Assembly: GCA_963793265.1 (NCBI GenBank)
Contig: CAWBZI010000007.1
Location: 64,001-128,000, forward strand
Direction: 5' to 3'
Origin: an uncultured cyanobacterium
GTDB lineage: Bacteria > Cyanobacteriota > Cyanobacteriia > Phormidesmidales > Phormidesmidaceae
DNA: 64,000 nucleotides
A program made the translations under genes and the position numbers. This document shows positions 29,407-55,667 of the stretch, piece by piece. How positions within the stretch are numbered: the stretch's first letter is position 1; each line of letters opens with the position of its first letter. Below the pieces are notes generated by a model. The model was not told where the DNA came from, did not search any database, and worked only from the letters and a program-made list of their open reading frames with translations.

Positions 29407-29438
29407 TCCATATCTTCTCCATCTTTCTTATTTACGCT
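29407..29438 (+). promoter_or_regulatory. Candidate RfpB box plus -10 element, chlF-psa operon
   Basis: TCCAT-atcttc-TCCAT-N10-TACGCT. Confidence 0.7.
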
Positions 29439-29497
29439 GACTTCAATCAATCGAGAAAAGACAGTTTGCTTAAAGCTGTCCTCGACAGCGCAGGAAA

Positions 29498-30634
29498 ATG
29501 AAGATGACACAGATAGGCTTTGGGAGAACGAGCGCACTGGATCGCTTTGAACCACAGGTGTCTCCAACAGCGGCTAATATCGAGAGCCACTTTAGCTACC
29601 CAGTCAGTGCTGAAAATACTGCAACAGAGTCGGGCCGCTTGCGGCTTTGGCGTCGATTTTGCCTGTGGGTTACTAGCACTGAAAACCGGATATATATCGG
29701 TTGGTTTGGCATGATTGCGATTCCAACCCTTTCTACTGCGGCCATTGTGTTTTTGCTGGCTATTATCGCGGCCCCGGCTGTCGATATGAACGGTACAGGG
29801 CAAATGGTTTCAGGCGCTTTGCTGGATGGCAACAATCTGATTACGGCTGCTGTTGTACCCACGTCAGCGGCCATTGGTACGCACTTCTACCCGATTTGGG
29901 AAGCTGCCTCTATGGACGAATGGCTGATGAACGGTGGGCCTTATCAGCTCATTGTGCTGCATTTTATTATCGGCATTATCAGCTATCAAGATAGAGAGTG
30001 GGAGCTGAGCTATCGGCTAGGAATGCGTCCATGGATCTCGCTGGCCTTTACTGCGCCTGTAGCAGCGGCGGTGTCGGTGCTGTTGGTTTATCCGGTGGGT
30101 CAGGGTGGATTTGCTTCGGGGATGCCCCTCGGCATTTCAGGCACGTTCACTTTTATGATGCAGTTTCAGGCCGATCACAACATTTTGGCCAGTCCGTTTC
30201 ACCAGGCGGGTGTTGTTGGCGTGCTGGGTGGAGCCTTGCTGTGCGCGGTTCATGGGTCTTTGGTGACTTCGACGCTGACGCGCCCTGAAGACAGATCGTC
30301 TGGAGACTACAGCTTTGAACACGCCCAGCGCTTTCAACAAAAGTTCTTTTGGCGCGGCGCTCAGTTCGACAGCTCGCGGGCCGTACACTTTGTCCTTGCA
30401 GCGATTCCGGTTGCGGGTATTTGGTCGGCGGCGCTGGGTGTGGATATGGCGGCTTTTGACTTTGACCATTTTCCACTGATGAGAGGGTCGGTGCAAAAGA
30501 CGGTTGCGCCTACTTGGTCTGATCGAGTGCTACGCGCCAATCTTGGCATCCAGGCGATGAAAGAAGTGAATCAAACAAAGTTTCCAGCGCTGATTACACC
30601 GTTGACAATAAAGGAGAGTTCTCATGACCGCTAG
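29498..30634 (+). CDS. chlF: Chlorophyll f synthase (super-rogue D1, PsbA4)
   Basis: D1 homolog with the diagnostic YQDREW (QD site), lacking Mn-cluster ligands and the [14 protein letters not shown]-terminus; first gene of the FaRLiP cluster. Confidence 0.96.
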
Positions 30635-32975
30635 TCCTCCGAAGCCGGAGACGCCTACTCGGGTTGTTACTGATAACAATCCGGTGCCAACCTCTTTTGA
30701 GAAGTGGGCAAAGCCGGGACACTTTGATCGAACGCTGGCACGTGGGCCTAAAACCACTACCTGGATTTGGAACCTACACGCTGACGCGCACGACTTTGAT
30801 ACGCATACGGCTGATTTGCAAGATGTCTCTCGCAAAATCTTTTCTGCTCACTTTGGGCATTTGGCCGTTGTTTTTGTTTGGCTGAGTGGAATGTATTTCC
30901 ACGGGGCTCGCTTTTCTAATTTTTCGTCCTGGATGAGCGATCCGGTTCATATTAACCCGAGCGCTCAGGTGGTGTGGCCGCTGGTTGGGCAAGACATTTT
31001 GAATGCTGATATGGGCGATGGTTTTAGAGGGATTCAGATTACCTCTGGGCTGTTTCAGATGTGGCGCGGTGAAGGGTTTACGAACGAGTTTCAGCTTTAT
31101 TGCACCGCAGTCGGGGCGCTGGTAATGGCAGCGCTGATGATTTTTGCGGGCTGGTTTCACTACCATGTGCGATCGCCCAAACTAGAATGGTTCCAAAATG
31201 TCGAGTCGATGCTCAACCACCATTTAGCCGGGCTGCTGGGCCTGGGCAGTTTGGGCTGGGCCGGGCACCTCATTCACGTGGCTTTGCCGACCAACAAACT
31301 GTTAGATGCTGGAGTGGCACTCAAAGACATTCCGCTGCCGCACGAGTTTATTCTAGACAAAGCGGTGATGGCCGAGCTTTATCCTGGATTTGCGCAAGGG
31401 CTGAAGCCTTTGTTCACGCTTAACTGGGGGGCCTATGCTGACTTTCTTACCTTTAAGGGGGGATTGAACCCGGTGACTGGGGGCTTGTGGATGACGGATA
31501 TTGCGCATCATCATGTTGCGATCGCTGTCCTCTTCCTGGTCGCAGGCCACATGTACCGCACTAACTGGGGCATTGGGCACAGTATCAAAACGATGCTAGA
31601 CGATGCCAGAAACCCAAAGATGCTGCCGTTTTTGAGCTTCATTGGCCCAGAAGGACACAGGGGACTCTACAAAGTACTCACTACCTCCTGGCACGCGCAG
31701 CTTTCGATTAACCTGGCTTTGTTGGGTTCGCTGAGCATCATTGTGGCTCAGCACATGTATGCCATGCCGCCCTATCCGTATTTGGCGACTGACTACGGCA
31801 CCGTGACCTCGCTCTTTACGCATCACATGTGGATTGGCGGCTTCCTGATTGTCGGCGCTGCGGCTCACGCGTCTATCTTCTTAGTGCGTGACTATGTTCC
31901 GGCTGAAAACGTTAACAACGTGCTCGATCGCGTCCTGCGCCATCGAGATGCGATTATCTCTCACTTAGTTTGGGTCTGTCAGTTCTTAGGCTTCCATAGC
32001 TTCGCCATTTACTGTCATAACGACACGATGCGAGCGTTTGGGCGGCCTCAGGATATGTTCTCTGATACAGGGATTCAGCTACAGCCTATTTTTGCCCAGT
32101 GGGTGCAACAGGTTCAGACTATGGCCGTTGGCGGTATGCAGGCCGCAGAACCCTTGGGCAATGCGTTTGGTGGGGCAAAAGATATTGTTCTATCGGGCGT
32201 GGGCACAACGGCTCCTGGGGTGATCAATCCCGTCAGCTATGCGTTCGGTGGCGGTGTTGTGGCCGTGGGTAACAAAGTTGCGATGATGCCAATATCCCTG
32301 GGCACAGCCGACTTTATGATCCATCACATCCACGCTTTTACCATTCACGTGACGGTGCTGGTGCTATTGAAAGGCGTGTTGTTTTCTCGCAGCTCTCGGT
32401 TGATTCCTGATAAGGCTGAGCTAGGGTTCCGCTTTCCTTGTGATGGCCCCGGACGCGGCGGCACCTGCCAGGTTTCCGGCTGGGATCATATCTTCCTTGG
32501 GTTGTTCTGGATGTATAACTCGATTGCGATGGTGATCTTTCACTTCTTTTGGAAGATGCAGTCGGACGTGTGGGGTACGGTGAACGCCGATGGCAGTATC
32601 TCGCATATTACGGGCGGAAACTTTGCGCAGTCGTCGATTACGATTAACGGCTGGCTCAGAGACTTTCTGTGGGCTCAGGCGACTCAGGTGATTAGCTCTT
32701 ATGGGTCGGCTATTTCGGCTTACGGGCTGATGTTTTTAGCGGGGCACTTTGTCTTTGCCTTTAGCCTGATGTTCTTGTTTAGCGGTCGTGGCTACTGGCA
32801 GGAGCTAATCGAGTCGATTGTGTGGGCGCATAACAAGCTGAGAATTACGACAGCGATTCAGCCTCGGGCGCTGAGCATTACGCAAGGCCGCGCGGTGGGC
32901 GTTGCACACTATTTGCTTGGCAGTATTGTCACGACCTGGGCCTTCTTTTTGGCTCGGATGGCATCACTGGGCTGA
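30624..32975 (+). CDS. psaA2: Far-red PSI core protein PsaA2
   Basis: [34 protein letters not shown]-type loop insertions; FaRLiP context. Confidence 0.97.
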
Positions 32976-32998
32976 TAGATCTATTTATCAGAAGAAAG

Positions 32999-33033
32999 AT
33001 CACGCAATCACGCAATCACGCAATCACGCAATC
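32999..33033 (+). repeat. 8-bp tandem repeat (ATCACGCA x4 plus partial)
   Basis: ATCACGCA ATCACGCA ATCACGCA ATCACGCA ATC. Confidence 0.9.
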
Positions 33034-33035
33034 GC

Positions 33036-33064
33036 GTAGGGGCATAGCATTGCTATGCCCCTAC
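33036..33064. repeat. GTAG-type REP-like palindrome
   Basis: GTAGGGGCATAGCA-T-TGCTATGCCCCTAC, perfect 14-bp arms. Confidence 0.8.
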
Positions 33065-33101
33065 CCGGAAATCATGAAAAACTCATTACCTATTTCGAAC
33101 C

Positions 33102-35333: not shown

Positions 35334-35531
35334 TACGCATTGCCGGAAGCGTCTCCTTCTAGTTTTTTCTGGAGTTCTCTTCTGGCACCCATTCTGTGGA
35401 CTCTCCTCGTCCCAGACACACGTCCTGATTGCTAGACCGATCAGGACTTTCTTTCCCCTTTTTCTGCTTTCAACTGTCCGCTTTTAACTGTTCGCTTTTA
35501 ACCTCTGCTATTCGCGTATCGAGGCAAACAC

Positions 35532-36074: not shown

Positions 36075-36116
36075 CGGCTTTGTTGGATTGCTTACTTTAT
36101 AGAATAGATAAATACC

Positions 36117-36290: not shown

Positions 36291-36347
36291 GTAGGTTTAT
36301 CCGATTAACGCCCCTACGAGTTTTTGTTTCTTGCGAGGATATTTTCA

Positions 36348-36851: not shown

Positions 36852-36894
36852 CGTATCGCTACTGGCTACTTTAGCTACTTTCTAGGAGAACGCT

Positions 36895-37280: not shown

Positions 37281-39209
37281 ATGAGAATTCTACTTGTAGA
37301 GGATGATGAGTCAGTTGCTAAAGTGCTGAAAAATCTGCTGAGCAGTGAGGGCTATACGGTAGATGCTGCGCACGATGGTTTTTTGGGCTGGCAGCTAGCA
37401 AGTGCTTCCCATTACGATCTAGTAATTTTAGATGTTGTTTTACCCAATATCGGCGGGCTGGAATTTTGTCGGCGGCTGCGCGAGCAGTCTTATAATATGC
37501 CGGTGCTGCTGGCGACTGCGCTTGACTCTAGCGATAAGAAGATAGATGGGCTAGACGCGGGTGCGGATGATTATATTACAAAACCTTTTGAGCCTAAGGA
37601 GCTGTTGGCTCGGGTGCGGGCGCTATTAAGGCGCACTCAAACGTCTATTTCTCTGGCTTTTGATTGGGGCAAGCTGCGGTTGGAGCCCCATAGTCGAAAT
37701 GTGGTTTATGCAGAGAATGTGCTAAGCCTGACGCCGAAAGAGTATTCGCTGTTGGAGCTGTTTTTAAGAAATTCGTCTCAGGTGTTTAGCAGAAGGGCAA
37801 TTTTGGATAACCTGTGGAGCTACAGCGAAGCGCCGGGCGAGGAAACGGTGACTTCTCATATTAAAGGGTTGCGACGGAAGCTCTCGGCGGCGGGTGCTCC
37901 GGCTGATTTTATTGAAACGGTTTATGGGGTGGGCTATCGGCTAAAGCCAATGGCGGAGGCTGTTTGCGTTCAAGAAGACGCGAATAAGGCGGCCGCGGAT
38001 CGTCGTCAAAAAACGAAGGTTGCGCTGGCGACTTTGTGGAAGTCGGTGAAAGTTCATCAGGTTAAAAGATTAAATCTGTTGAAGACATCACTTGAGGCGC
38101 TACAAACTAACCAGCTTTCTGCACAGTCGAGAGTGTCTGCCTATCGGGCGGCGCATAGTCTGATTGGCGTGCTGGGAATTTTTGGATTCAAAGCAGCTTC
38201 TGATCTGGCGATAGAAATTCAAGATTTGCTGGCGGGCAATCTGCCGATTGGGCCAGAAGATCAAGAACAGTTGCGATCGCTCATTCGCAAAATAGAAATG
38301 CAGCTCAATGAGGCCGTGCAGCTATCAGAATCAACCTCGAATACAAACTGTATTCCGCTATTGGTGCTCATGGATTCTCAGCTAACGCTAGCGCCTAAGA
38401 TGGTCAGCGCACTTTGGCAAAAAGGGTTAACCGTCAAAATAGCGCCTCATATAGAGGCGCTGCAAAATCTTTTGGTTGCCTCTAGGAGCATTCAGCCTCA
38501 GACAGTTCAAGCGGGTTCTCAAGAACAGGCTTTTGTAGGTGTGAAGGAGTCTGAGTTAAAAGGTATTTTACCAGATGTCGTGCTGCTTGATTTTTCGGTT
38601 GATAAAGCGACCGCTGAGGAGATAGCTCAGCTATCGGATCTTATTCAACAGGTGCCGTCTTTGATGGTTTTGACCTGTAGTGCTGACGGGTCGCTGATGA
38701 CTCGGGCTAAGGCTTCTAAGCTGGGTAACTATCCTTTTCTCTACAATCCAAATGCAGCCGGTATCATTGCAGGCATTGAGATACTGAGATCGCACGCTCA
38801 TCAGACCTCAAGCAAGATTTTAGCAGTGGATGACGATCCTAAAATCTTAGCGGCCTTGCGGGCTCAGCTAGAGCCTCAGGGCTTCGAGATTGTGACGCTA
38901 AATGAGCCGCTTGATTTTTGGCGATCGCTCCAAGAAGCCGCGCCCGATCTGCTGCTGCTTGATATTTCCATGCCTGAGTTTGACGGCCTTGAGCTGTGTC
39001 AGATTGTTCGCCAGGCCCCAGACTGGAACCATCTGCCGATTGTGTTCTTTACCTCTCACGCCGACGCTCGCACAAAGCAAGCCGCGTTTCGAGCAGGTGC
39101 AGATGATTTAGTTGAAAAGTCTTCTCATAGCGCGGAGCTGTCTGCGCACCTTTGCAATCAAATTAAGCGATCGCACCTCCAGCAGGCAATATCAGCGATC
39201 GCCTCTTAG
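37281..39209 (+). CDS. rfpB: FaRLiP transcriptional activator (REC, OmpR wHTH, Hpt, REC-like, REC)
   Basis: MRILLVEDD, GADDYITKPF, LTPKEY, IETVYGVGY, AHSLIG (Hpt), C-terminal REC. Confidence 0.93.
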   Translation: MRILLVEDDESVAKVLKNLLSSEGYTVDAAHDGFLGWQLASASHYDLVILDVVLPNIGGLEFCRRLREQSYNMPVLLATALDSSDKKIDGLDAGADDYITKPFEPKELLARVRALLRRTQTSISLAFDWGKLRLEPHSRNVVYAENVLSLTPKEYSLLELFLRNSSQVFSRRAILDNLWSYSEAPGEETVTSHIKGLRRKLSAAGAPADFIETVYGVGYRLKPMAEAVCVQEDANKAAADRRQKTKVALATLWKSVKVHQVKRLNLLKTSLEALQTNQLSAQSRVSAYRAAHSLIGVLGIFGFKAASDLAIEIQDLLAGNLPIGPEDQEQLRSLIRKIEMQLNEAVQLSESTSNTNCIPLLVLMDSQLTLAPKMVSALWQKGLTVKIAPHIEALQNLLVASRSIQPQTVQAGSQEQAFVGVKESELKGILPDVVLLDFSVDKATAEEIAQLSDLIQQVPSLMVLTCSADGSLMTRAKASKLGNYPFLYNPNAAGIIAGIEILRSHAHQTSSKILAVDDDPKILAALRAQLEPQGFEIVTLNEPLDFWRSLQEAAPDLLLLDISMPEFDGLELCQIVRQAPDWNHLPIVFFTSHADARTKQAAFRAGADDLVEKSSHSAELSAHLCNQIKRSHLQQAISAIAS

Positions 39210-39242
39210 CCTCATTTGATACCGCATTTGGCTTCTTTAACG

Positions 39243-41795
39243 ATGCAATCCTCTTACCTTCCTGTCAAAAATCTAGAAGATCTGGTGCATCGGATGACCG
39301 ATCGCATTCGGCGATCGCTTGAGCTGCCCGAAATCTTAGAGGCGACAGCAGATGAACTCAGGCGGTTTTTAAAAGTCGATCGGGTGAAGGTTTATCGGTT
39401 TCATGATGACGCGAGTGGAGAAGTGGTTGCAGAGGCGATTAAACGCCAGCGGCTGCCTTCGCTGCTAGGCCAAAGATTTCCGGCAGGAGATATTCCAGAG
39501 GACGCTCGCGAGCTTTTTTTGGCGGTACGCCAGCGCAGCATTGTGAACGTTGCTAGGCACGAGATTGGCGTTAGCCCGCTGTTGAGCGAGCAAAAAGTAA
39601 GCGAGCCGCAAAATGCTCTATTGGCCAATCTCTCTTTTCGCAAGGTCGATCCCTGCCATATTGAGTATTTGAAGGCAATGGGCGTGCAGGCGTCTTTGGT
39701 GGTGCCAATTCTGCATCGGCACAAGCTTTGGGGCCTTTTGGTCGCTCACCATAGCGTGGCCCGGCGGTTTGGCAACAAAGAGTTGGAGATAGTGCAGCTC
39801 ATTGCCGATCAGGTGACAGTGGCGATCGCGCACGCTAATTTGCTACAGATTACGCGATCGCAGGGCCAGCATGAGTCTGTGATTAATCAAACAGTTTCGC
39901 ACCTGCACTCCACGGGTAATAATCCGCTTAAAAACGCCTTATCCCAGATGGTAAGCGCGCTAGGGTGCGTAGGCGGTCGGCTGTATATACCCACAGACAA
40001 AGCTGGCTTTCGGCTGATTACCGACGGCATACAGCCACAGACGCTCAAGACCTCGATTGAAAGCGGACTTGAACCGTCAGGTGCCGCCACTGTTTTGGAG
40101 CGGCAGTCTAGCTGGAAAACCTGGCTAGAAGCTGAAGCCGATAGCCAAATTGTTGCTAACTTATGGGCTATTGCCGATATAGAACATCCTCGTGTTTCTT
40201 CGGGGATTGTTTCAGCTTTTTCGCGGAGCCATATACGAGGCGTTTTGGTGGCCAAGCTGGTGCATCGAAACCGATTTTTAGGCTACTTGAGTCTGTTTCG
40301 TCAGGCAATAGATACAGAGACAATTTGGGCCGGGCGGCTAGATGCGAGTGACGCTAGGCAGCAGCGCCCGCGCGAGTCCTTTGAGGCATGGCGAGAGATT
40401 AAAAAGGAGCAGCCGCAGCCCTGGCGATCAAGAGAGATTGGCTTAGCCCAAGATTTGGCCGACCGGTTTGCTTCTGCTATTTATCAAATGCAGCTATACG
40501 AGAAGGTGCAGGCGCTCAATGCTAATTTGGAAGCGCATGTGCTGCAGCGGACGGCGCAGCTTGAGCAGGCAAATGAAAGCTTAAAGCAAGAAATTACTGA
40601 GCGGGAGCGAGCGTTTGATGAGCTGCAAAAGGCGCGGGATGCGCTGAAGCGTTTGAGCCATCAAAACGAACTGATTCTTGATTCAGCCGGAGAAGGTATT
40701 TATGGCATTGATCCTAAAGGCAAAATAGTCTTTGTTAATCCGGCAGCACTCAAGGCTTTGGGCCGCTCAAAGAAGGCTGTGATTAATTATTTTATGCACG
40801 ACCTTATCTGTCACTCAAAGCCTGATGGTACTCGCTATCCCTGGCGACAAAGCCCTATATACAACACGCTAAAGCACGGACAAACGCAGCACGTAGCGGG
40901 TGATTTGTTTCAGCGGCAAGGGCAGAGCTTTCCGGTTGAATACGTGAGTACTTCGATTTGGGAGCAGGGCAAGATTATTGGGGCTGTGGTTGTCTTTCAA
41001 GATATTACGGAAAGGCAGGAAATAGAGCTGATGAGGGATGAGTTTATTGCGGTGGTGAGCCATGAGCTGAGAACGCCTTTGACCTCTATTCGGGCTGCTT
41101 TGGGCCTGCTTGCGCAAAAGAAGCTAGAGGTTCCGGCAGCTCAGCGTCAGCGGATGGTCGAGATTGCATTTTCCAATACAAACCGGCTGGTTCGGCTGGT
41201 TAGCGATATTCTCGATGTGGAGCGTATTAAGCTAGGGAAAATTACGCTGAGCCCGCAAACTTGCGACTTGGCTGAGATTATGACTCAGGCGGCTGATGAG
41301 ATGAGAGCGATGGCTGAGAACCGCAATATCTCTTTGAAGGTGTCACCGCTTTCGATTCAGATTGAGGTGGATCGCGATCGCATCGTTCAAACGCTTACAA
41401 ACCTGCTGAGCAATGCCATTAAGTTTTCACCCACGGGCCGCGCGGTCGCGGTGAGTGCTCAGCAGGTTGATGCAACTGGCCAACTGCAAATAGCGCATGA
41501 ATTAAGCGCTGCTGGCGAAAAGGCAATTCAGGCGACGCTGGCGCAGGCTCCTTCAATACTGTTAATTCAGGTGAAAGATCAGGGCGAGGGCATTCCTGAA
41601 GATAAGCTAGAAGCTGTTTTTGGACAGTTTGAGCAGCTCAACACGTCAGATGCGGCGCATCAGGGTGGAACCGGGCTAGGACTGGCGATTTGTCGCAGTA
41701 TTGTGCAGCAGCATCGGGGCAAAATTTGGGCGCAGAGTGTGCCGGGTGTAGGTAGCACTTTTTGCTTTACGCTGCCGCTGCCGTGGACTAATTAG
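39243..41795 (+). CDS. rfpA: Knotless red/far-red phytochrome histidine kinase (GAF-PHY-PAS-HK)
   Basis: GDIPEDAR, PCHIEYL (bilin Cys), PRESF tongue, SHELRTP, GTGLGL; ATG 39243 preferred over TTG 39216. Confidence 0.95.
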   Translation: MQSSYLPVKNLEDLVHRMTDRIRRSLELPEILEATADELRRFLKVDRVKVYRFHDDASGEVVAEAIKRQRLPSLLGQRFPAGDIPEDARELFLAVRQRSIVNVARHEIGVSPLLSEQKVSEPQNALLANLSFRKVDPCHIEYLKAMGVQASLVVPILHRHKLWGLLVAHHSVARRFGNKELEIVQLIADQVTVAIAHANLLQITRSQGQHESVINQTVSHLHSTGNNPLKNALSQMVSALGCVGGRLYIPTDKAGFRLITDGIQPQTLKTSIESGLEPSGAATVLERQSSWKTWLEAEADSQIVANLWAIADIEHPRVSSGIVSAFSRSHIRGVLVAKLVHRNRFLGYLSLFRQAIDTETIWAGRLDASDARQQRPRESFEAWREIKKEQPQPWRSREIGLAQDLADRFASAIYQMQLYEKVQALNANLEAHVLQRTAQLEQANESLKQEITERERAFDELQKARDALKRLSHQNELILDSAGEGIYGIDPKGKIVFVNPAALKALGRSKKAVINYFMHDLICHSKPDGTRYPWRQSPIYNTLKHGQTQHVAGDLFQRQGQSFPVEYVSTSIWEQGKIIGAVVVFQDITERQEIELMRDEFIAVVSHELRTPLTSIRAALGLLAQKKLEVPAAQRQRMVEIAFSNTNRLVRLVSDILDVERIKLGKITLSPQTCDLAEIMTQAADEMRAMAENRNISLKVSPLSIQIEVDRDRIVQTLTNLLSNAIKFSPTGRAVAVSAQQVDATGQLQIAHELSAAGEKAIQATLAQAPSILLIQVKDQGEGIPEDKLEAVFGQFEQLNTSDAAHQGGTGLGLAICRSIVQQHRGKIWAQSVPGVGSTFCFTLPLPWTN

Positions 41796-41818
41796 GGCGG
41801 CTTCAGAAGAATATCAGA

Positions 41819-42247
41819 TTGTTTGTTTATACATCGGAGGAAAGACCTGTGAGGACTGTGACCGTGGCGACTAAGCGAATTTTGATTGTGGACGATGATC
41901 CTGATATTCGTGAGGCTACTCAGCTATGCCTTGAAATTACGGGGCAGTGGGAAGTGCTAAAGGCGGCAAATGGGCCGGATGGGATAGCGATCGCGCGGCA
42001 AGAAAAACCTGATGCGATTCTTTTGGACATGATGCTACCGGGTATGGACGGGCTAACAATCTTGCAGCGGCTGCGAGAAAATCCTGAGACGCGGCAGATT
42101 CCGATTGTTATTCTTACCGCTAAAGCGCAGTCTCATGAGCAGCAGTATTTCGGTCAGCTAAAAGTGGCTTCTGTGATTACAAAGCCATACGATCCGCTCA
42201 CTATCTCAGACCAGATCGCAACAGCGCTCACGGCTTCAGTTGATTAG
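41819..42247 (+). CDS. rfpC: CheY-like response regulator
   Basis: ILIVDDD, AILLDMMLPGMDG, ITKPYDP; true start probably a downstream GTG. Confidence 0.92.
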   Translation: MFVYTSEERPVRTVTVATKRILIVDDDPDIREATQLCLEITGQWEVLKAANGPDGIAIARQEKPDAILLDMMLPGMDGLTILQRLRENPETRQIPIVILTAKAQSHEQQYFGQLKVASVITKPYDPLTISDQIATALTASVD

Positions 42248-42428
42248 TATGACCCGCGTTCAAAACTCAACCTATCCTCAACCTATTGAAACATAGCCAG
42301 TACTTATATATCTCTTTCAAAATCAGCATCGTCCATGTGCTGTCAGTTTAGATATTATTTTATTGAAATCTCCAGAACATCAATATTTCTCTAAAGAGAA
42401 ACCTTTGATTTCTAAATTGCGTCAACAA

Positions 42429-42462
42429 CGCTCTCCATACCCTTAATGGAGAGCGCTTTCTT
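42429..42462 (+). terminator. Hairpin downstream of rfpC
   Basis: CGCTCTCCAT-acccTTA-ATGGAGAGCG 10-bp stem followed by CTTTCTTT. Confidence 0.5.
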
Positions 42463-42570
42463 TAAAGAGCACTTTCAGCTAGGCATCCTCCGTAACTTTT
42501 CTAAAGATGGGTAGTTGCCTGACTAAAAAGCCTTTAAAGTAACCATATCCATTTATATTTATGTCGCTGT

Positions 42571-42798
42571 ATGCCTGTACAAACCGTTGGAACGCCGCCG
42601 CCCGAAGCCGATCAGCTACGCGCAGATGTTGAAAAGCAGCTCCCGAATATCATCGCTAGCTTTAGCGAGGTATTGCAAAAGCAGTTCGGCTTTGAGAATT
42701 TGAGAGTTGGTGGGTTCACCGTTGTTCCAGGATCCGCTGTTCCAGAAGCTGCCGAAAACAACATTTCTTGTGATGAGGAAGGCTGCTCTCTCGACTAG
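42571..42798 (+). CDS. Small acidic hypothetical protein with C-terminal CxxxxC
   Basis: 75-aa ATG ORF with protein-like composition, ending ISCDEEGCSLD. Confidence 0.7.
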   Translation: MPVQTVGTPPPEADQLRADVEKQLPNIIASFSEVLQKQFGFENLRVGGFTVVPGSAVPEAAENNISCDEEGCSLD

Positions 42799-42837
42799 CA
42801 CAGCCAAACGGCAGCGTTAGGAAAGTCTTTGGAACGC

Positions 42838-42869
42838 TTCATAACATCTCCATTTTGCTTTGTTCTAAT
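42838..42869 (+). promoter_or_regulatory. Candidate RfpB box plus -10 element, psbA3
   Basis: TTCAT-aacatc-TCCAT-N10-TCTAAT. Confidence 0.7.
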
Positions 42870-42907
42870 AGGCGTGGTCACTTAAATAACCCATCCTACA
42901 AAACAAA

Positions 42908-43987
42908 ATGACTATTTCTATCCAACGTCCTAACACAACCCAGTGGGAGAGATTCTGCCGCTGGATTACTAGCACCGAAAACCGACTGTATATCGGCTGG
43001 TTTGGCGTTTTGATGCTGCCGCTTTTGGGCGTTTCAATTACCGTTTTTGTCACGGCTTTTATTGCCGCGCCCCCGGTTGATATTGACGGCATTCGCGAGC
43101 CGCTATCGGGCTCACTGCTGTATGGCAACAATATTATTACCGCCGCTGTAGTCCCAACCTCTAACGCGGTCGGACTGCATTTTTACCCCATTTGGGAGGC
43201 TGCTACGCTTGATGAATGGCTCTATAACGGTGGGCCTTACCAGATGATCGCCTTCCACTATATTCCAGCGCTGCTCTGCTATTTAGGGCGAGAGTGGGAG
43301 TTGAGCTATCGATTAGGAATGCGCCCTTGGATTTGCATTGCCTACTCTGCACCCGTGGCGGCGACAATCTCAGTTTTTCTGATCTATCCGATTGGTCAGG
43401 GCAGCTTTTCTGACGGCCTGCCTATGGGCATCAGCGGCACTTTCAACTTCATGTTCGTTTTCCAGGCGGAGCACAACATTCTGATGCACCCGTTTCATAT
43501 GATCGGAGTTGCAGGTGTGCTGGGCGGTTCGCTCTTTTGTGCCATGCACGGTTCTCTGGTCACATCTAGTTTAATTAGAGAAACCTCTGACGTTGAGTCT
43601 CAAAACCAGGGCTATAAGTTTGGTCAGGAAGAAGAGACTTATAACATCCTTGCGGCTCACGGCTACTTTGGCCGGTTGATTTTTCAATACGCCAGCTTTA
43701 ATAACTCTCGCCAGCTACACTTTTTCTTAGCAGCGTGGCCTGTTATTTGCATTTGGATTGTGGCTCTGGGCATTAGCACCATGGCGTTCAACCTCAATGG
43801 CTTTAACTTCAACCATTCCGTGCTCGACTCTCAGGGCCGGGTGCTACCAAGCTGGGCAGATGTCGTGAATCGTGCAAGTTTGGGCTTTGAAGTGATGCAC
43901 GAGCGCAATGCTCATAACTTCCCGCTAGATTTGGCTAGTGGTGAGGCAACGCCTATCGCCCTGCAAGCGCCTGATATTCAGGCTTAG
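42908..43987 (+). CDS. psbA3: Far-red D1 protein
   Basis: Mn ligands retained ([24 protein letters not shown]); FRL-type AFHYIP and DGLPMG. Confidence 0.96.
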
Positions 43988-44102
43988 CTTACGTTTGAAT
44001 TGGCGCTAGTTTAGCTTTCGCGGATACCTCCACAGCGGCGCTTTCCTTTTGCGAGAGCGCTTTCTTTGCCTTGGGAAAGATGCAGCTTCAATTCTGTTGC
44101 TG

Positions 44103-44140
44103 ACACCCAGTCAACACCCAGTCAACACCCAGTCAACACC
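44103..44140 (+). repeat. 11-bp tandem repeat (ACACCCAGTCA x3 plus partial)
   Basis: ACACCCAGTCA ACACCCAGTCA ACACCCAGTCA ACACC. Confidence 0.85.
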
Positions 44141-44256
44141 TACTTGGCACCTATCTTTGGCCGCAGATAGCTCTCTATCTAACGACAGATCATAAGCGAT
44201 CGCTATAACAACAGCCATATATCCTAATGCATATTGTTCTCATTTAGGGGGCGTCC

Positions 44257-44288
44257 TCCATAAGTTCTCCATATTTGTTTTTTAAATT
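44257..44288 (+). promoter_or_regulatory. Candidate RfpB box plus -10 element, USP/CBS unit
   Basis: TCCAT-aagttc-TCCAT-N10-TAAATT. Confidence 0.68.
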
Positions 44289-44296
44289 CTAAAGTA

Positions 44297-44326
44297 ACTA
44301 TCTACAGACGTACTATCTACAGACGT
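44297..44326 (+). repeat. 15-bp exact tandem duplication
   Basis: ACTATCTACAGACGT x2. Confidence 0.9.
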
Positions 44327-44341
44327 AAAGAGACTCCCCTG

Positions 44342-44461
44342 ATGCCTTCTTCCCTTGAAAGCCCACCTATTAGCGCCTGTCAGTTCTTAGTGATTAGCTA
44401 CGGTAGTCAGCTACAGGGCGACGGCTCAGCGGGGATGCGATCGCGCCCTCGTCACAATTGA
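44342..44461 (+). pseudogene. Possible 5' remnant of a hydrogenase maturation protease (HoxW-like)
   Basis: 39-aa ORF MPSSLESPPISACQFLVISYGSQLQGDGSAGMRSRPRHN*; FLVISYGSQLQGDGSAG resembles the LVIGYGNxLRGDDGxG family motif. Confidence 0.45.
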
Positions 44462-44581
44462 GCAATTCTTCAAAACCTACGGTCAAAGGCCATGACGTAC
44501 TAGCGAAGCGCTATGTGCATAAGCCGCTTCAAAAATTAAAATGCACCGTTGAACTCATTTTCTTTTACCCCTTCTAACACC

Positions 44582-45169
44582 ATGTTCAAAAGAATTCTAG
44601 TTGCGCTCGACTCAGGGGATACCTGCTACGCTCTGTTTGATAAAGCATTAGCGTTAGCCCAAGCTACGGGTGCAAGTCTAATTTTGTTTAGTGCCCTAAA
44701 CGCAGAAGAAGATGCCAGTGTGCCTTCTGCTTACGCGCTTGTAGGCTATCCAATCGGGATTAATGACAGCGCTTGGAACAACTACCAGCAGCGCTACAAA
44801 GCCTATGAAGCTAGAGAGCTAGCGAAGCTACGAAATTTTGTTAAACGCGCTAAGACCGCGGGAATTCAGGCAGAGTTTGCTCAAACCTCGGGCCTTCCAG
44901 GACAGGCTATTTGCGATCGCGCCAAAGCCTGTAGGGTAGATTTGGTGATGGTAGGCAGTCATCGACGCCTGGGCATTAAAGAGCTGCTACTCGGCAGCGT
45001 AAGCAACTACGTTATGCATCATGCACCTTGCTCAGTCATGGTTGTTCATAATCAATCCACGACGCGACTGACCACTGGCATTTCAAACTCGCAAACTTCA
45101 AACTCGCAAACTTCAAACTTGCAAGCTTCAAACTTACAGAAGGAAATCTATCATGTTGACAGTCGCTGA
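44582..45169 (+). CDS. Universal stress protein
   Basis: MFKRILVALD, DLVMVGSH, LLLGSVSNYVMHHAPCSV; C-terminal SNSQT-type repeats overlap the next gene. Confidence 0.93.
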   Translation: MFKRILVALDSGDTCYALFDKALALAQATGASLILFSALNAEEDASVPSAYALVGYPIGINDSAWNNYQQRYKAYEARELAKLRNFVKRAKTAGIQAEFAQTSGLPGQAICDRAKACRVDLVMVGSHRRLGIKELLLGSVSNYVMHHAPCSVMVVHNQSTTRLTTGISNSQTSNSQTSNLQASNLQKEIYHVDSR

Positions 45170-45668
45170 TATTATGACCCCTAAAGTTTTTACGATTCGT
45201 AGCTCTGCAAAACTGACGCAGGCGATCTTGCTGATGCAACAAAAGCAGGTGCGATCGCTAATTGTTGAAAGAGAAGTTCAGGGCGGTGCTTATGGCATCT
45301 TAACCGGGCAGGACATTGTTTATAAAGCGACAGCTCGGTGCGTAGATCCTAGTAGCACGATGGTTTGTGAGCTGATGAGTTCGCCCTGTGTAGCCGTTGA
45401 GCCTGACTTGAGTTTGTCAGCACTTGCTAAGCGCTTTTTAGCAGCGGGTATACGAAGGGCTCCGGTGATTGAAGACAGTCAATTACTGGGCGTTGTTTCT
45501 ATTACAGATATCCTTATGAATAGCAATGTGGATTCGGTTCATTTGCCGTGCGATTTGTCTGAGCAGATTGAAGTTGCTTTGCGTCACAATCGGCTTAACT
45601 GGGCTGAAGATAATCAGATTGAGCGGGAGTGCGAAGCGGCTAGAAATGTGCTGAGCGAACTGAGCTAA
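45153..45668 (+). CDS. CBS-pair protein with degenerate CP12-like tail
   Basis: Two CBS motifs (VADIMT, YGILT..DI, IRRAPV, LLGVVSITDI), then LSEQIEVAL...ECEAARNVLSEL. Confidence 0.82.
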   Translation: MLTVADIMTPKVFTIRSSAKLTQAILLMQQKQVRSLIVEREVQGGAYGILTGQDIVYKATARCVDPSSTMVCELMSSPCVAVEPDLSLSALAKRFLAAGIRRAPVIEDSQLLGVVSITDILMNSNVDSVHLPCDLSEQIEVALRHNRLNWAEDNQIERECEAARNVLSELS

Positions 45669-45674
45669 ATGCTA

Positions 45675-45708
45675 AGCCCCTACGGAAACAGCAATCTCCG
45701 TAGGGGCT
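45675..45708. terminator. Hairpin between convergent CBS and pentapeptide genes
   Basis: AGCCCCTACGGA-10nt-TCCGTAGGGGCT 12-bp perfect stem. Confidence 0.7.
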
Positions 45709-45719
45709 ATAGCCGTTTA

Positions 45720-46259
45720 TTACGAACCTATATGAGCGCCCCAAGAAACCCAATTTTGAGCGTTTGAAGACGTTCCACAGGTTGTAACTTTTGTTAGATT
45801 TTTTAGGATTGCACCTTCGTAATCGGCAGATTCTAGCTCGCGAGCGTCTATATGAGCGCCCGTTAAATCGGCTTCGCACAGGTTAGCGCCGCTCAGTCGC
45901 ACGTTGCTAAGATCCGCGCCTCTCAAGTCAGCGCGCCTTAGATCAGCGGCTCGCAAATCAGCATTTGAGAAGTTTGCCCCTATAAGACTGGCCGCCTGTA
46001 AGTCAGCGCCAATAAAGTTTGTACTTTGGAGATTAGCGCCGTTCAGAGTTACACCCGTAAGATCAGCATCGGTAAGGTTGGCCTCTGAGAGGTTAGCCCG
46101 GCTGAGATCGGTATTGGTAAAGTCTGCGCTGCTAAGATCGCAACGACTGAAGTTAATACCAACAAGAGAGGTATTGTGCAGTATTACCCCTCGTAATGAC
46201 ATTTTTGCGAAGTTGCGATCGCCTTTGTTGAATTCTTGAATGAGCTGTCGAAATACCAT
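45720..46259 (-). CDS. Pentapeptide repeat protein
   Basis: GDRNF then tandem A(D/N)L repeats; ATG 46259 preferred. Confidence 0.9.
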   Translation of the reverse strand: MVFRQLIQEFNKGDRNFAKMSLRGVILHNTSLVGINFSRCDLSSADFTNTDLSRANLSEANLTDADLTGVTLNGANLQSTNFIGADLQAASLIGANFSNADLRAADLRRADLRGADLSNVRLSGANLCEADLTGAHIDARELESADYEGAILKNLTKVTTCGTSSNAQNWVSWGAHIGS

Positions 46260-46363
46260 GAGAGTTTGCCTCAATAACACGTCTGTATGAGTGATTACCT
46301 ATCAACGCACCACTTGCCGAAACGATGCGCATGTAGGTCTGGCTATACAGCTTGCACATGCGG

Positions 46364-46400
46364 ATAGAGCGGTGTGTTTTCTCTCTTCACACCGCTCTAT
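46364..46400. other. 13-bp perfect inverted repeat overlapping the predicted pentapeptide-gene -10/TSS
   Basis: ATAGAGCGGTGTG-11nt-CACACCGCTCTAT. Confidence 0.7.
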
Positions 46401-46430
46401 TGTATACGCAGAATATGGAGAACTTATGAG
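46399..46430 (-). promoter_or_regulatory. Candidate RfpB box plus -10 element, pentapeptide gene
   Basis: Minus strand CTCAT-aagttc-TCCAT-N10-TACAAT. Confidence 0.68.
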
Positions 46431-46462
46431 GTTTCTTCAAACAGTGTTACTTAGCAAGGTAT

Positions 46463-46494
46463 CGCAAAAGTGCGAATGCATCCGCACTTTTGCG
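46463..46494 (-). terminator. Hairpin after psbH2, probable end of the apc-psb operon
   Basis: CGCAAAAGTGCG-8nt-CGCACTTTTGCG 12-bp perfect stem, about 50 nt after the psbH2 stop. Confidence 0.65.
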
Positions 46495-46546
46495 CGCCGC
46501 TTAGCCCACAGTGCACAAAGACTTTAACGACTACTAATGTAGTAAG

Positions 46547-46738
46547 CTAAGTGGCCAAAACGATAGTACCGTTATAGAGCTGCAAGAGAATCAGCATGAA
46601 AACCAGCAGCAAAACCAGCATAACCGCCATAATCGGCGCTGTTCCCCAGCCAGGAGATACCCGGCCTGCTTCAGAGTTAAGCTTTCTCAAGGGGTATTGA
46701 AGCGGGGCAGCTTTGTTAGAAACGTACTTTTGAGCCAT
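46547..46738 (-). CDS. psbH2: Far-red PSII subunit H
   Basis: [29 protein letters not shown]. Confidence 0.93.
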
Positions 46739-46751
46739 GATCTAGTCTCTA

Positions 46752-48281
46752 TTAAACAACTTTCTGACGAGAGGTCGGATCGCCTACTTTTGTGAAATAG
46801 CCCCACTCCACTTGTTCGGGGCTTAGCGTAGGGTCGATACCAGAGAATACGTCTTGGAAGATGGCTCGTAGGCCGTGCCAGATATGACCGAAAAACCAGA
46901 GTAGGGCAAAGCAGACATGGAAGAAGGCAAAGAAGCCGCGATTGCTGGTTCTAAACAGACCGTCTGAGTCGTAAACGTCGCGGTCGAACTCGAAGGGTTC
47001 TCCGAGCTGAGCTTTGCGAGCGTATTTTTCGACCGTTTTAGGATCGGTGAACGTTTGGCCGTCTAAATCGCCACCGGAGAAGCTGACGGTTACCCCAGTT
47101 TGTTCAATACCGTATTTGGCTTCTGCCTGACGGAAGGGAATATCGGCTCTCACTACACCGTCTTTGTCGAATAAGACAACTGGAAAGTTTTCAAAGAAGT
47201 TGGGTATTCGACGAACGATAAGCTCTCTGTTTTCGCCGTCTTTAAAGGTGGGATGGCCGAGCCAGGTTGTTGGAAGCCCGTCGCCATCCACCATACGACC
47301 TACCCGAAACAATCCCCCCTTAGCAGGACTGTTGCCTACATAGTCATAAAAAGCAAGCTTAGTCGGTACGCTATCCCAGGCTTGTGAAGGCGTTTTACCC
47401 TCGTTAAGATCGGCGTTTACCCGGCGGCTAATTTCTTGCTGAAAGTAGCCCTGATCCCACTGGTAGCGCGTGGGCCCCCACAGTTCGATTGGGGTTGTTG
47501 CTGTGCCGTACCACATGGTACCAGCGGCGATGAACGCGCCTGAGAAGAACACGGCCAGGCCGCTGGCAAGAACGCTTTCGATGTTGCCCATTCTAAGCAT
47601 TTGATAGAGGTATTGAGGCGGCCGCACTAGAATATGGAACAGTCCGCCAAGAATGGCAACAATGCCCAGGGCAATATGGTGCGCGACTACGCCACCTGGG
47701 TTTTGCGGATCAAATCCAGCAGGGCCCCAGTCTGGAGCGACGCCCTGAACGTGTCCGATGAGGCCGAAGGGATCGGAAACCCACATGCCGGGCCCGAAGA
47801 TGCCGGTTAGGTGAAATGCGCCAAAGCCGAAACACAGCAGCCCGGCGAGGGTGAGATGAATGCCGAAGACTTTGGGAAGATCGATCACAGGTTCGTTGGT
47901 TTTGGGATCGAAAAAGGTGGCAATGTCCCAGTAGACCCAGTGCCAGCAGGCGGCTAGGAAGGAGAGTCCAGAAAAGAGAATGTGGGCGATCGCAACCGTT
48001 TCAAATGTCCAAAAGCCTGGATTGATAAATGTCTCTCCGGTGACGCTCCAACCCTGCCAAGAGTTGACGACGCCTAAGCGAGCAACAAAGGGCATTAGGA
48101 AGCATCCCTGCCGCCACATTGGATTTAAGATTGCATCGCTAGGGTCGTAACGAGAGAGTTCAAACAGCAGCGTTGAACCGGCAAATCCAGCGCAGAGTGC
48201 GTTGTGCATCAGGTGCACGGCGATAAGTCGGCCTGGGTCGTTGAGAACAGAGGTGTGTACGCGATACCAGGGAAGTCCCAT
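46752..48281 (-). CDS. psbB2: Far-red CP47
   Basis: [34 protein letters not shown]. Confidence 0.97.
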
Positions 48282-48329
48282 GGCGTTTTCTCCTATGAGT
48301 TCAGGGCGGGTTGTGAGGATTGTTACCGA

Positions 48330-49778: not shown

Positions 49779-49849
49779 GGGGGTTAGAACCTCTTAGGAT
49801 TGATTGTCTGGAGCATAGTTCTGGGTATTGTCCTAAAATTTGTTGAGCT

Positions 49850-50908: not shown

Positions 50909-50942
50909 GATGATGTCCTTAAACTTAACTAATTAGGCGCGT

Positions 50943-51473: not shown

Positions 51474-51684
51474 AGGTTTAACCTCATCTAAACTTTGGGT
51501 AGATATGCACGCCGCCAAACCAGCTAATTGAGATGCGGTAGGCAAAAGGATTGATGTAGTGATGGGTTGTTTGGCTAGAGAGATTTGTGCTGGTAGCTGA
51601 TGTGACGATTAGCGGAACTTCTAGCGTGGAATGGGCTGGATTGTTTTGTTTGTTGTTCATGGTTTTGTTGATGAAAGACGACAC

Positions 51685-53889: not shown

Positions 53890-53951
53890 AGCGGCCTCCA
53901 AACAAATTCAACACATTATTTTCAGCAATCAGCTTTAGACTCGTCAGCCGC

Positions 53952-54431
53952 TCAGGGCATTAAGCCTGCAATGAGATAGTCAAAGTACGGGCCGACTTCA
54001 GCGACATCTTCTAAGCTCAACATTTCTAGCGTCACCTCTTTAAGCGCGCGCATACAGTCTGCTAGGTTCCTGAGCGGAACGCCGAGAGACTGATACATTT
54101 CTTTTGCGCCTCTGACGCCGCTATCTTCAAGCGGATCTACGTCGCCTGCGGCTACCGCATAAGAAATCAGCCTAATAAACCACGCCTGGTCGCGCAGACA
54201 CGAAGCCTGGAATCGCTCGTTTTCAGCATTGCTAGGGGTAATGGGGCATCGCTGCCAAAACCTTTGGCTTCCCTTTTGAACAATCTCTTCTACATTACTG
54301 TTGAGAATTGAGACAATTCTCAATCGCTGCGATCCGTTATGGAAAAATCTCTCAACGGCGTCAAGTTCGCCTTTAGACAAGTAGCGAACTTCGCGGTCGG
54401 CGGTTGCGATCGCCTGAGTAATCACGCTCAT
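53952..54431 (-). CDS. apcD2: Far-red allophycocyanin ApcD2
   Basis: MSVITQAIATAD start; FWQRCP, ASCLRDQAW; lies between apcB2 and apcE2. Confidence 0.88.
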   Translation of the reverse strand: MSVITQAIATADREVRYLSKGELDAVERFFHNGSQRLRIVSILNSNVEEIVQKGSQRFWQRCPITPSNAENERFQASCLRDQAWFIRLISYAVAAGDVDPLEDSGVRGAKEMYQSLGVPLRNLADCMRALKEVTLEMLSLEDVAEVGPYFDYLIAGLMP

Positions 54432-54488
54432 AATAAACAGCCCTAACACAGCATAGACATTAACAAAGGCGATGCAATACTTCTACTA

Positions 54489-54974
54489 CTAGCTCAGCCC
54501 AGAGCCAATGTGATCAAAGTAAGCGCCCACTTCTCGACCGGCTTCAGCGCCTATCATATCGGTGACTACTTCTTTCATGGCCTGCACCGAACGCACAGTT
54601 GCGCCTACGGGTACGCCCAAAGAGTTGTAAGTCTCTTTCAGACCGTTCAGTACACGCTCATCTAGAATTGACGGATCGCCTGCTAGCATGGCATAGGTCG
54701 CGTAGCGTAGAAAGAAATCCATATCCCGAACGCAGGCAGCGTAACGACGACAGGTGTACATGTTGCCACCAGGCGCGGTGATATCGGTGTATAGCAATGA
54801 TTTTGCGACTGTTTTAGTCACAATCACAGAGGCATTAGCGCTGATTGTCATAGCGGCTCTTGCTCTTAAGTCGCCGCTGCGAAAGTATTGCTGCAGCGTG
54901 TCTAAAGATGAGTCATCTAAATACTTGCCTTGAGCGTCAGAAGCGTTAATGAGCGTGGTGATAGCGTCTTGCAT
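54489..54974 (-). CDS. apcB2: Far-red allophycocyanin beta subunit
   Basis: [27 protein letters not shown]. Confidence 0.95.
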
Positions 54975-55028
54975 GGGCGTTCTCCTACAGGGGGTAATCA
55001 AAATAGGTAGTTGCTGAAAGAAAGGCTT

Positions 55029-55505
55029 TTAGGACAGAGATTGGATGATCAGATCGAAGTAGGCAGAGACTTCTTGAGCATCTTCATCGCTCAGCACTGC
55101 CATGGCTTCTTCTTTTAAACAGCGCATACACTCGGCAATATTCCGAATAGGAATCTCTAAGTTGTTGTACATCTCTTTGATGCCTACTGTACCAATATCT
55201 TCTAGCGGGCGTTCGCTGCCTGCTAAAACAGCGTATGCAATCAAACGCACGTACCAGCCCTGATCGCGCTGGCAGGAAGCGGTTTTACGGTCATTGCCGC
55301 TATTGCTAGGCGTGTTGGGGCATCGCTCCCAAAACTTTTGGCTACCGCGCTCAACAATCTGCTGTTCGTTTTCAGCGAGGGCCTTAGCAATGCGTACCCG
55401 CTGTTCTCCTGTTTTCACGAAGTCTTGAAAAATGCGGAGTTCTTTAGGGGCAGGATAACGAGCTTCACTGTCTGCGCTCAAGATGAGTTCTGTAACTAGG
55501 CTCAT
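55029..55505 (-). CDS. apcD5: Far-red allophycocyanin alpha-type ApcD5
   Basis: MSLVTELILSAD start at 55505 with AAGGA RBS; FWERCP, ASCQRDQGW; first gene of the operon. Confidence 0.85.
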   Translation of the reverse strand: MSLVTELILSADSEARYPAPKELRIFQDFVKTGEQRVRIAKALAENEQQIVERGSQKFWERCPNTPSNSGNDRKTASCQRDQGWYVRLIAYAVLAGSERPLEDIGTVGIKEMYNNLEIPIRNIAECMRCLKEEAMAVLSDEDAQEVSAYFDLIIQSLS

Positions 55506-55536
55506 AACAACGTGTCCTTTTATGGAAGTGGCTATT

Positions 55537-55568
55537 ACCCTAAACAACAAACATGAAGAACCTATGAA
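55537..55568 (-). promoter_or_regulatory. Candidate RfpB box plus -10 element, apcD5...psbH2 operon
   Basis: Minus strand TTCAT-aggttc-TTCAT-N10-TAGGGT. Confidence 0.72.
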
Positions 55569-55635
55569 AAGAAAAAGATATCTTCCAAGCTCTGTTGACT
55601 TAAGTTAAACCAAGGAAAAGCTGTACGCTTTCCTC

Positions 55636-55667
55636 TTCATAGGTTTTTCATGTTTTCACGCTATATC
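55636..55667 (+). promoter_or_regulatory. Candidate RfpB box plus -10 element, psbO2-nblA-psbV2 operon
   Basis: TTCAT-aggttt-TTCAT-N10-TATATC. Confidence 0.68.

Follow-up and report, generated by a model that had tools for sequence, protein, structure and literature searches.

Six promoters in a far-red light photoacclimation (FaRLiP) gene cluster, which lies on contig CAWBZI010000007.1 of an uncultured cyanobacterium of the Phormidesmidaceae (GenBank assembly GCA_963793265.1), appear to be copies of a single design. In the 64,000-nucleotide stretch analyzed here (positions 64,001 to 128,000 of the contig; the window), each carries a TCTTCAT-like direct repeat of two 7-bp units separated by 4 bp (7-4-7), followed after 10 nucleotides (nt) by a −10 hexamer. 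We propose that a tandem pair of winged-helix domains of the RfpB type binds this box, substitutes for the missing −35 element and recruits RNA polymerase. RfpB itself, which the phytochrome RfpA switches under far-red light, is the likely binder before chlF, psbA3, apcD5 and psbO2. The box would, moreover, be a family-level operator, a sister variant of which precedes genes for universal stress protein (USP), CBS-domain, pentapeptide-repeat, protease-like, phosphoenolpyruvate (PEP) synthase and isoamylase proteins and is likely read by RfpB-like paralogues, often encoded next to it. The window's unit of protease remnant, USP and CBS genes, together with its pentapeptide gene, would derive from such a sister cassette; the USP box, having FaRLiP-type letters, is now likely read by RfpB as well, and the pentapeptide box could be served by either reader. 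Finally, a reversed HLR1-like site near −60 of chlF may add a low-light input through RpaB. Taken as a whole, this explanation, in which binding, start sites and the direction of regulation are predicted from observed sequence, spacing, conservation and gene context, strikes us as probable, if far from secure.

A sequence-only reading had described the six sites as YYCAT-N6-TYCAT-N10 followed by a −10, and its coordinates and strands proved correct, with each string oriented to its named gene (Table 1). YYCAT-N6-TYCAT occurs seven times in the window, against 0.87 ± 1.04 expected (100 shuffles, none of which reached seven); the seventh match, absent from that reading's list, lies at 26471 on the minus strand, within a coding region and without a −10. 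Scanning the genome, as had been suggested, gave a divided answer: the bare pattern is common (53 matches in 5.68 Mb), but 6 of these fall within the 28.5-kb cluster, whereas other spacers (3 to 5 and 7 to 12 nt) gave 45 to 100 genome matches each, with 0 or 1 in the cluster; hence, the pattern is unspecific, and its clustering at the N6 spacer is specific. With a matrix built solely from 113 boxes of other genomes, five window sites took ranks 1 to 5 among the 14 genome matches scoring at least 14, followed by a site on contig C6 (C6:438147, rank 6) and the pentapeptide site (rank 7). A generic sigma-70 scan of window positions 42200 to 46800 found 4 sites (5.6 expected), none coinciding with the boxes.

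The 113 boxes yielded the consensus tC-TTCAT-nRGTTc-TYCAK-nTTT-N6-TAnnnT, i.e., a TCTTCAT 7-4-7 direct repeat with an 11-bp period. The direct repeat noted earlier was thereby confirmed, but its unit is longer than the five bases then assigned to it, and a conserved RGT lies between the halves. TANNNT stands at exactly 10 nt in 94 of the 108 distinct boxes of relatives, compared with 0 to 8 boxes at any one of the other offsets (4 to 17 nt). No −35 likeness was seen at 16 to 18 nt in the aligned boxes (mean, 0.4 to 1.7 of 6), so the suggestion that the box replaces the −35 element agrees with the sequence. Predicted starts, some 7 nt past each hexamer, would fall near 29445 (chlF), 42876 (psbA3), 44295 (USP unit), 46392 (pentapeptide, minus strand), 55530 (apcD5, minus strand) and 55674 (psbO2).

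Placement was followed through relatives, which were scanned with a matrix made from the six window boxes, the −10 excluded. As a phylum-wide chlF search had yielded only 4 of 400, searching proceeded family by family: chlF turned up in 33 of the order's 172 other genomes and, in three further families, in 1 of 52, 11 of 61 and 27 of 360 genomes; 64 of these 72 chlF-bearing genomes were retrieved and annotated, 8 of family f7 (presumably the Nostocaceae, judging from family size and gene order) being left out. Where chlF leads its operon, a box precedes it in 52 of 53 cases (same order, 32/33; f7, 19/19; f2, 1/1), and the single same-order chlF without one sits near a contig end. In family f17, in which chlF stands behind psbA3, the box is found before the leading psbA3 (11/11) and never before chlF (0/11). 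The same dependence on gene order holds for psbA3, with a box in 3/3 cases in the same order and 3/14 in f7, where it mostly follows chlF, and for psaA2, which is preceded by a box in 14/17 cases in f7 and f2, where it stands separate, and in 0/38 elsewhere (behind chlF, 0/32). For apcD5 the counts are 10/10 in the same order and 0/25 elsewhere, and 14 of 22 rfpD-like genes have a box. None was found in the relatives' clusters before psaL2 (0/44), psaF2 (0/42), psbC2 (0/25), psbD3 (0/24) or psbV2 (0/23), nor before rfpB, either in the window, as the sequence-only reading had remarked, or in relatives (0/48). Held-out FaRLiP clusters showed the same pattern. Box position thus tracks operon starts as gene order shifts.

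RfpB is a plausible reader of such a box. It genetically activates the whole FaRLiP cluster (PMC4658448), it carries a Trans_reg_C domain matching PhoB structures (E 2e-12), and the predicted recognition helix is retained across 47 relatives. The box, in turn, resembles that of Escherichia coli PhoB: PHO boxes are likewise 7-4-7 direct repeats with an 11-bp period (PMC4415409), 10 bp upstream of the −10 (PMC1906773), with CTGTCAT as the unit where TCTTCAT is found here. The two systems differ in the remaining half-site letters, in the recognition helix and in the signal (phosphate there, light here), and binding of the box by RfpB is putative. In PhoB, an arginine reads the G of the half-site; RfpB has a glycine at that position, which would suit a T in place of the G. 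The assignment of the box to RfpB stands in part: an OmpR/PhoB-type direct repeat occupies the −35 place at a fixed 10 nt from the −10, precedes FaRLiP operon leaders and is missing before rfpB and internal genes, but the view that all six sites define the FaRLiP regulon is not supported. For the FaRLiP boxes we regard RfpB as the likely reader, as already published in the form of a hypothesis; no report of RfpB binding was seen in titles and abstract openings, in a search that did not extend to subscription journals. A separate observation concerns family f17 (e.g., loci L068-L069), in which the RfpB recognition helix is altered, with an aspartate where others have glycine, and nearly all boxes end in TTCAG; box and helix possibly covary, but TTCAG occurs in other lineages too.

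The motif itself turned out not to be new. Both the motif class and the RfpB hypothesis appear in section 9 of a preprint (bioRxiv 10.1101/2024.05.15.594131), which describes T-rich motifs of 61, 59 and 33 bp (the chlF, long and short motifs) before chlF, psbA3, apc, psa, rfpD and psbO, reports none before rfpABC, proposes RfpB as the binder and cites a 2021 thesis according to which a chlF reporter requires the conserved region. The chlF, psbA3, apcD5 and psbO2 boxes of the window match this FaRLiP intergenic motif, which in the window as in relatives sits where the preprint places it, ahead of FaRLiP operon leaders but not of rfpABC. Sizes agree as well, with 33 to 34 bp from box to hexamer here (conserved columns −1 to +31; short motif, 33 bp) and about 62 bp once the 5' element is included (chlF motif, 61 bp), and the published 5' and 3' regions, some 12 bp apart, are also that far apart here. 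Unlike the present analysis, the available preprint text does not resolve the motif into direct repeat, spacer and −10 and matches neither half to a known motif (Tomtom found none); it also treats the motif as restricted to FaRLiP species, a view that the look-alike boxes described below contradict. As late as 2023, the RfpABC promoter sequences were stated to be unknown and work on an RfpB motif to be in progress (PMC10127269), and the available parts of PMC11424453 and PMC10294691 contain nothing on the motif. The 2023 report (PMC10127269) also supplies reporter data: of its ten fragments, the only one induced in far-red light (30-fold), the chlF fragment of JSC-1, contains by eye a box, TACGCT at 10 nt and an HLR1-like 5' element, and no box was seen by eye in six uninduced fragments. 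The DNA site of RfpB would be needed for far-red-switchable promoters or for moving chlorophyll f synthesis to other hosts; with the motif already in print, the headline adds little, and what the parse supplies is the exact bases and spacings.

The assumption that all six sites mark the FaRLiP regulon looks unsafe after comparison with other genomes, since the motif also occurs, in close variants, in apparently non-FaRLiP intergenic DNA. Near-identical boxes precede USP and pentapeptide homologs in genomes in which neither chlF nor an RfpB ortholog was found. After removal of genomes with an RfpB ortholog or apcE2 (20 of 64 boxes), this sister set comprised 41 distinct boxes from 18 same-genus genomes. 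Five of the 18 (one of them a single contig) were checked further and had ordinary apcE only and no chlF-level match; many others are fragmented assemblies, in which absence of FaRLiP means "not found." Each of the 14 pentapeptide homologs retrieved from the genus has a sense box 71 to 159 nt upstream; of 19 USP homologs, 8 are preceded by a sense box at a distance of up to 600 nt. In 20 loci surrounding these genes (344 kb in all), 35 boxes were counted upstream of USP, CBS, pentapeptide, PEP-synthase and unnamed genes, and 13 of the loci encode a total of 14 RfpB-like regulators. The spacing is retained: in loci without detected FaRLiP, TANNNT stands at 10 nt in 32 of 37 box-only matches and in none at offsets 5 to 9 or 11 to 15. 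By letters, however, the two variants were split almost completely in a leave-one-out comparison (FaRLiP, 50/51; sister, 41/41). The first base of the second half-site is C in 29 of 41 sister boxes versus 0 of 100 FaRLiP boxes, and all 41 sister boxes score below 0 on the resulting FaRLiP-versus-sister scale. The box thus appears not to be FaRLiP specific, with two variants that can still be told apart. If so, motif scans alone cannot define the FaRLiP regulon, cross-talk between RfpB and its paralogs is to be expected, and the sister boxes hint at the origin of the FaRLiP switch. Apart from this set, eight same-genus genomes with RfpB orthologs or FaRLiP genes had been missed by the chlF search at E 1e-150 (L200-L201 in G117, L202-L203 in G131, L204-L208 and L211-L213); FaRLiP is therefore commoner in the genus than the chlF count indicates.

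Sister boxes are present in this genome, too, which encodes four RfpB-like paralogs sharing the helix core H-[IV]-K-G-L-R with RfpB. A matrix of the sister set gave 16 matches, all intergenic, compared with 0 to 4 for permuted matrices: five window sites (that of psbA3 escaped it), two identical, unrelated sites and nine that are spread over three clusters, all of which have an RfpB-like gene nearby. Eight of the nine precede USP, CBS, two protease-like, isoamylase, hybrid kinase and two unnamed genes, and the ninth has no gene close behind it. The boxes at C6:438147 and C1:289872 adjoin 631-residue RfpB-like regulators, and the former is conserved before homologs of its small gene, 25 of 29 retrieved relatives scoring at least 14. 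Three loci deserve mention in their own right. Two (C6:438147-440442 and C1:284819-289872) pair an RfpB-like regulator with an adjoining sister box; at C6, the variant TTCAT-AATTTA-CTCAG shows strong conservation upstream of the gene for a 130-amino-acid protein that matches nothing in Pfam or NCBIfam and has homologs in 168 of the order's 173 genomes. In the third (C7:420755-437382), six sister-type boxes stand before a USP gene, an unnamed 205-amino-acid gene, a GAF-PAS hybrid kinase, an isoamylase and a run of protease-like, PEP-synthase-fragment and CBS-CP12 genes, all surrounding a receiver-winged helix-Hpt-GGDEF regulator and a CBS-PAS kinase; its make-up suggests a regulon that senses energy status or oxygen. 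A thin literature search turned up no account of a sister regulon of this kind, and the regulon, the captured cassette and the HLR1 reading discussed next appear to be new relative to the literature searched.

Of the window promoters, only that of chlF has the additional 5' element; the window apcD5 box lacks it, although it accompanies 7 of 9 apcD5 boxes of relatives. In 76 long motifs this element is a repeat with a 10-bp period that starts 30 to 32 nt before the box and fits a reversed HLR1, the site of RpaB, made up of two (G/T)TTACA(T/A)(T/A) octamers 2 nt apart (PMC6525291). Mismatches averaged 3.05 of 16, as opposed to 5.88 ± 0.63 for a permuted consensus (0/300 as good), with the caveats that the likeness was spotted by eye before testing and that the motif sequences are related by descent. 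A 2-nt gap was best, 37 short motifs gave about 7.2 mismatches, and the fit held separately in four classes (chlF of two lineages, psaA2 and apcD5; 0/200 each). At three mismatches, the window chlF element reaches a level attained by 0.4% of the background. RpaB is reported to activate in low light from HLR1 sites centered at −66 to −45 (PMC6525291), an interval that would include the center of the chlF element if the predicted start is right. Unlike the sites described there, the element is reversed, has about three mismatches and has a second activator box as its partner in place of a plain core promoter, and nothing linking HLR1 to FaRLiP promoters was found in the literature searched. The genome has an RpaB-like gene (C5:144262-144990), and loose HLR1 matches precede several of its visible-light photosynthesis genes. 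On this basis, we put the odds that the 5' element is an RpaB site at about even; if it is, full chlF induction is predicted to require RpaB plus RfpB.

Who reads the USP and pentapeptide boxes depends on where these units came from. The end of the protease remnant is 74% identical over 23 residues to that of an intact paralog, which has a sister box of its own; USP, CBS and pentapeptide genes are neighbors in sister clusters; and the stretch from psbA3 to psbB2, as read in four further clusters of the genus (G141, G131, G115 and G140), contains no USP/CBS match. Because of these three observations, the units look like a transplanted sister cassette, with which two of the six boxes likely arrived. 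If all six are instead RfpB operators, with the USP, CBS and pentapeptide proteins as genuine members of a far-red regulon, as the sequence-only reading had it, the USP box is as expected: it is the best match in the genome to a FaRLiP-only matrix (37.6) and scores +10.2 on the scale on which every one of the 41 sister boxes is negative, and thus looks converted to the FaRLiP type. The close FaRLiP relative G136 also has the pentapeptide gene behind psbH2, with a FaRLiP-type box. However, that version must accommodate the decayed gene at the head of the unit, the four clusters without USP/CBS, homologs that are boxed in genomes without detected FaRLiP, and a pentapeptide box at only +0.5 (−7.9 in an earlier test version that included spacer and −10), and we find it unlikely. 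The opposite possibility is that only four boxes are RfpB operators and that the cassette is a passenger whose two boxes are read solely by an RfpB-like paralog. Cassette origin, the helix core common to RfpB and the four paralogs, and sister-matrix scores above 20 for both sites (USP, 23.0; pentapeptide, 20.8) speak for it, but this matrix discriminates poorly (the four core sites score 19.9 to 28.4 or are missed), and the second half-site begins with T in both boxes, as it does in 100 of 100 FaRLiP boxes, where 29 of 41 sister boxes have C; we hold it to be doubtful. The pentapeptide box itself is ambiguous between the FaRLiP and sister types.

A more radical alternative removes RfpB from the promoter altogether, its effect being indirect and the box being read as a −35 by an alternative sigma factor or by another OmpR-family regulator of the CopR, ManR or NrsR type. 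Sigma-factor pools do shift in far-red light (PMC6424891, the available part of which does not mention the USP, CBS or pentapeptide genes), binding by RfpB is not demonstrated in the literature examined, and CopR of Synechocystis sp. PCC 6803 is reported to bind TTCAT direct repeats (TTCATN4-5TTCAT), which occur at the mntC and nrs promoters as well (PMC4182526). Yet, an 11-bp direct repeat is the signature of a winged-helix dimer rather than of a sigma −35, and a CopR site needs TTCAT repeats 4 to 5 nt apart before cop genes, where the spacer here is strictly 6 nt and the targets are others. The consensus sequences of SphR (PMC1906773) and RpaB (PMC6525291) differ from the box, and in four families the box accompanies FaRLiP operons, while elsewhere it goes with RfpB-like genes. 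The L-box of RcaC (PMC5737509, PMC8256508) is comparable as a promoter site of a light-controlled response regulator, but rivals of the CopR or RcaC type explain the distribution less well than RfpB and its paralogs do, and we judge an indirect role of RfpB improbable. As for the 5' half of the long motif, it might, rather than being an RpaB site, be an AT-rich UP element for the alpha subunit of the polymerase, an NtcA site or a second RfpB site. It is AT rich, and UP elements sit at a similar position; it contains GTA-N8-TAA, one base off the NtcA palindrome; and in the f7 chlF promoters it resembles an inverted TTCAT pair (1.5 of 10 mismatches). Against this, the column order and 10-bp period of HLR1 matter to the fit. 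NtcA was rejected, GTA-N8-TAC being found in 0 of 113 upstream regions, as was a second or inverted RfpB box, which fits one class only (2.1 to 3.4 of 10 mismatches in the other three). One or another of these non-RpaB readings remains a serious contender, if short of an even chance.

Along with the CopR repeats, several findings weigh against the explanation we favor, in which RfpB and its paralogs read one box design and RpaB adds to it at chlF. The predicted −10 fits TANNNT in four of the six window promoters; the other two hexamers, those of psbA3 (TCTAAT) and psbO2 (TATATC), are noncanonical, each missing one key base, and TANNNT is likewise found in 0 of 9 psbO2 boxes and 0 of 3 same-order psbA3 boxes of relatives. 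Only 9 of 15 psbO2 genes of relatives have a box, and homologous sites share descent, so that box counts overstate the support. Three fragments of PCC 7335 that by eye contain the box were not induced in Chlorogloeopsis (PMC10127269), and the box is thus insufficient in a foreign host. In their boxes the second half-site has C as its second base, a position at which T is found in 32 of 32 boxes of f7, the presumed family of the host, and C in 28 of 51 same-order boxes; this lineage difference is a candidate, post hoc, for the reason why they failed. The sister box was found before none of 30 f7 homologs of the small protein (probably another paralog) and neither of 2 pentapeptide homologs from outside the genus. 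HLR1 is a loose, AT-rich consensus that the window copy matches with three mismatches, and no match of that stringency was present in the 450 nt searched before the main visible-light psaA (psaA1). The low-intensity optimum of the chlF reporter lends no support to RpaB, since its authors put it down to red photons, filtered light giving saturation only (PMC10127269).

Should all parts hold, the FaRLiP promoter would be a two-input device made from older parts, namely, an RfpB box drawn from a paralog operator family and a reversed HLR1; that family would run an undescribed stress and carbon-mobilization regulon (USP, CBS/CP12, PEP synthase, isoamylase and pentapeptide proteins), RpaB would gate chlorophyll f synthase on low light, and this genome would show a sister cassette in the act of being brought under far-red control through a few altered bases in its box. 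That these propositions are jointly true we suggest only very tentatively.

Table 1. Promoter boxes and associated features of the window (window coordinates; score on the FaRLiP-versus-sister scale)
Feature	Position	Strand	Score	Remarks
HLR1-like 18-mer, reversed	29377..29394	-		Candidate RpaB site; 5' half of published chlF motif; 3/16 mismatches; center about −60 from predicted start
chlF promoter	29405..29438	+	+12.4	7-4-7 box 29405-29422, T-rich 10-nt spacer, −10 TACGCT 29433-29438
rfpB	37281..39209	+		Receiver, Trans_reg_C winged helix, Hpt, receiver; likely binder; no upstream box
rfpA and rfpC	39216..42247	+		GAF-PHY-PAS histidine kinase (rfpA); single receiver domain (rfpC)
psbA3 promoter	42836..42869	+	+7.5	Box, noncanonical −10 TCTAAT; short type without 5' element
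USP-unit promoter	44255..44288	+	+10.2	Box, −10 TAAATT; leads protease remnant/USP/CBS cassette
Hydrogenase-maturation-protease-like gene remnant	44342..44486	+		Large internal deletion; only start and end of intact paralog matched
USP and CBS-domain genes	44549..45668	+
Pentapeptide-repeat gene	45720..46280	-
Pentapeptide promoter	46399..46432	-	+0.5	Box, −10 TACAAT; directly behind psbH2; FaRLiP/sister intermediate
apcD5 promoter	55537..55570	-	+5.9	Box, −10 TAGGGT; leads apc-psbD3-psbC2-psbB2-psbH2 run
psbO2 promoter	55634..55667	+	+3.2	Box, noncanonical −10 TATATC; back to back with apcD5 box

The genes of the cluster are chlF, psaA2/B2/L2, rfpB/A/C, psbA3, the USP, CBS and pentapeptide genes, psbH2/B2/C2/D3, an apc run, psbO2 and psbV2, FaRLiP paralog names being those that we presume from context; the chlF box leads chlF-psaA2-psaB2-psaL2-psaF2 and neighbors. 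Behind psbA3 lies a terminator-like hairpin (44037-44061), and short tandem repeats, an 11-mer present three times and a 15-mer present twice, flank the USP box (about 44100-44140 and 44300-44335). A long inverted repeat begins right behind the pentapeptide −10 (about 46370-46395, minus strand) and would sit at the extreme 5' end of the transcript predicted there. A collagen-like repeat protein gene (28176-28919) and a short upstream frame (29000-29220), both on the minus strand, closely precede the chlF promoter and are divergent from it. The cluster is directly flanked by a type I polyketide synthase (57419-63924, minus strand) in two adjoining reading frames, with the ketosynthase in 62089-63924 and the remainder in 57419-62137.

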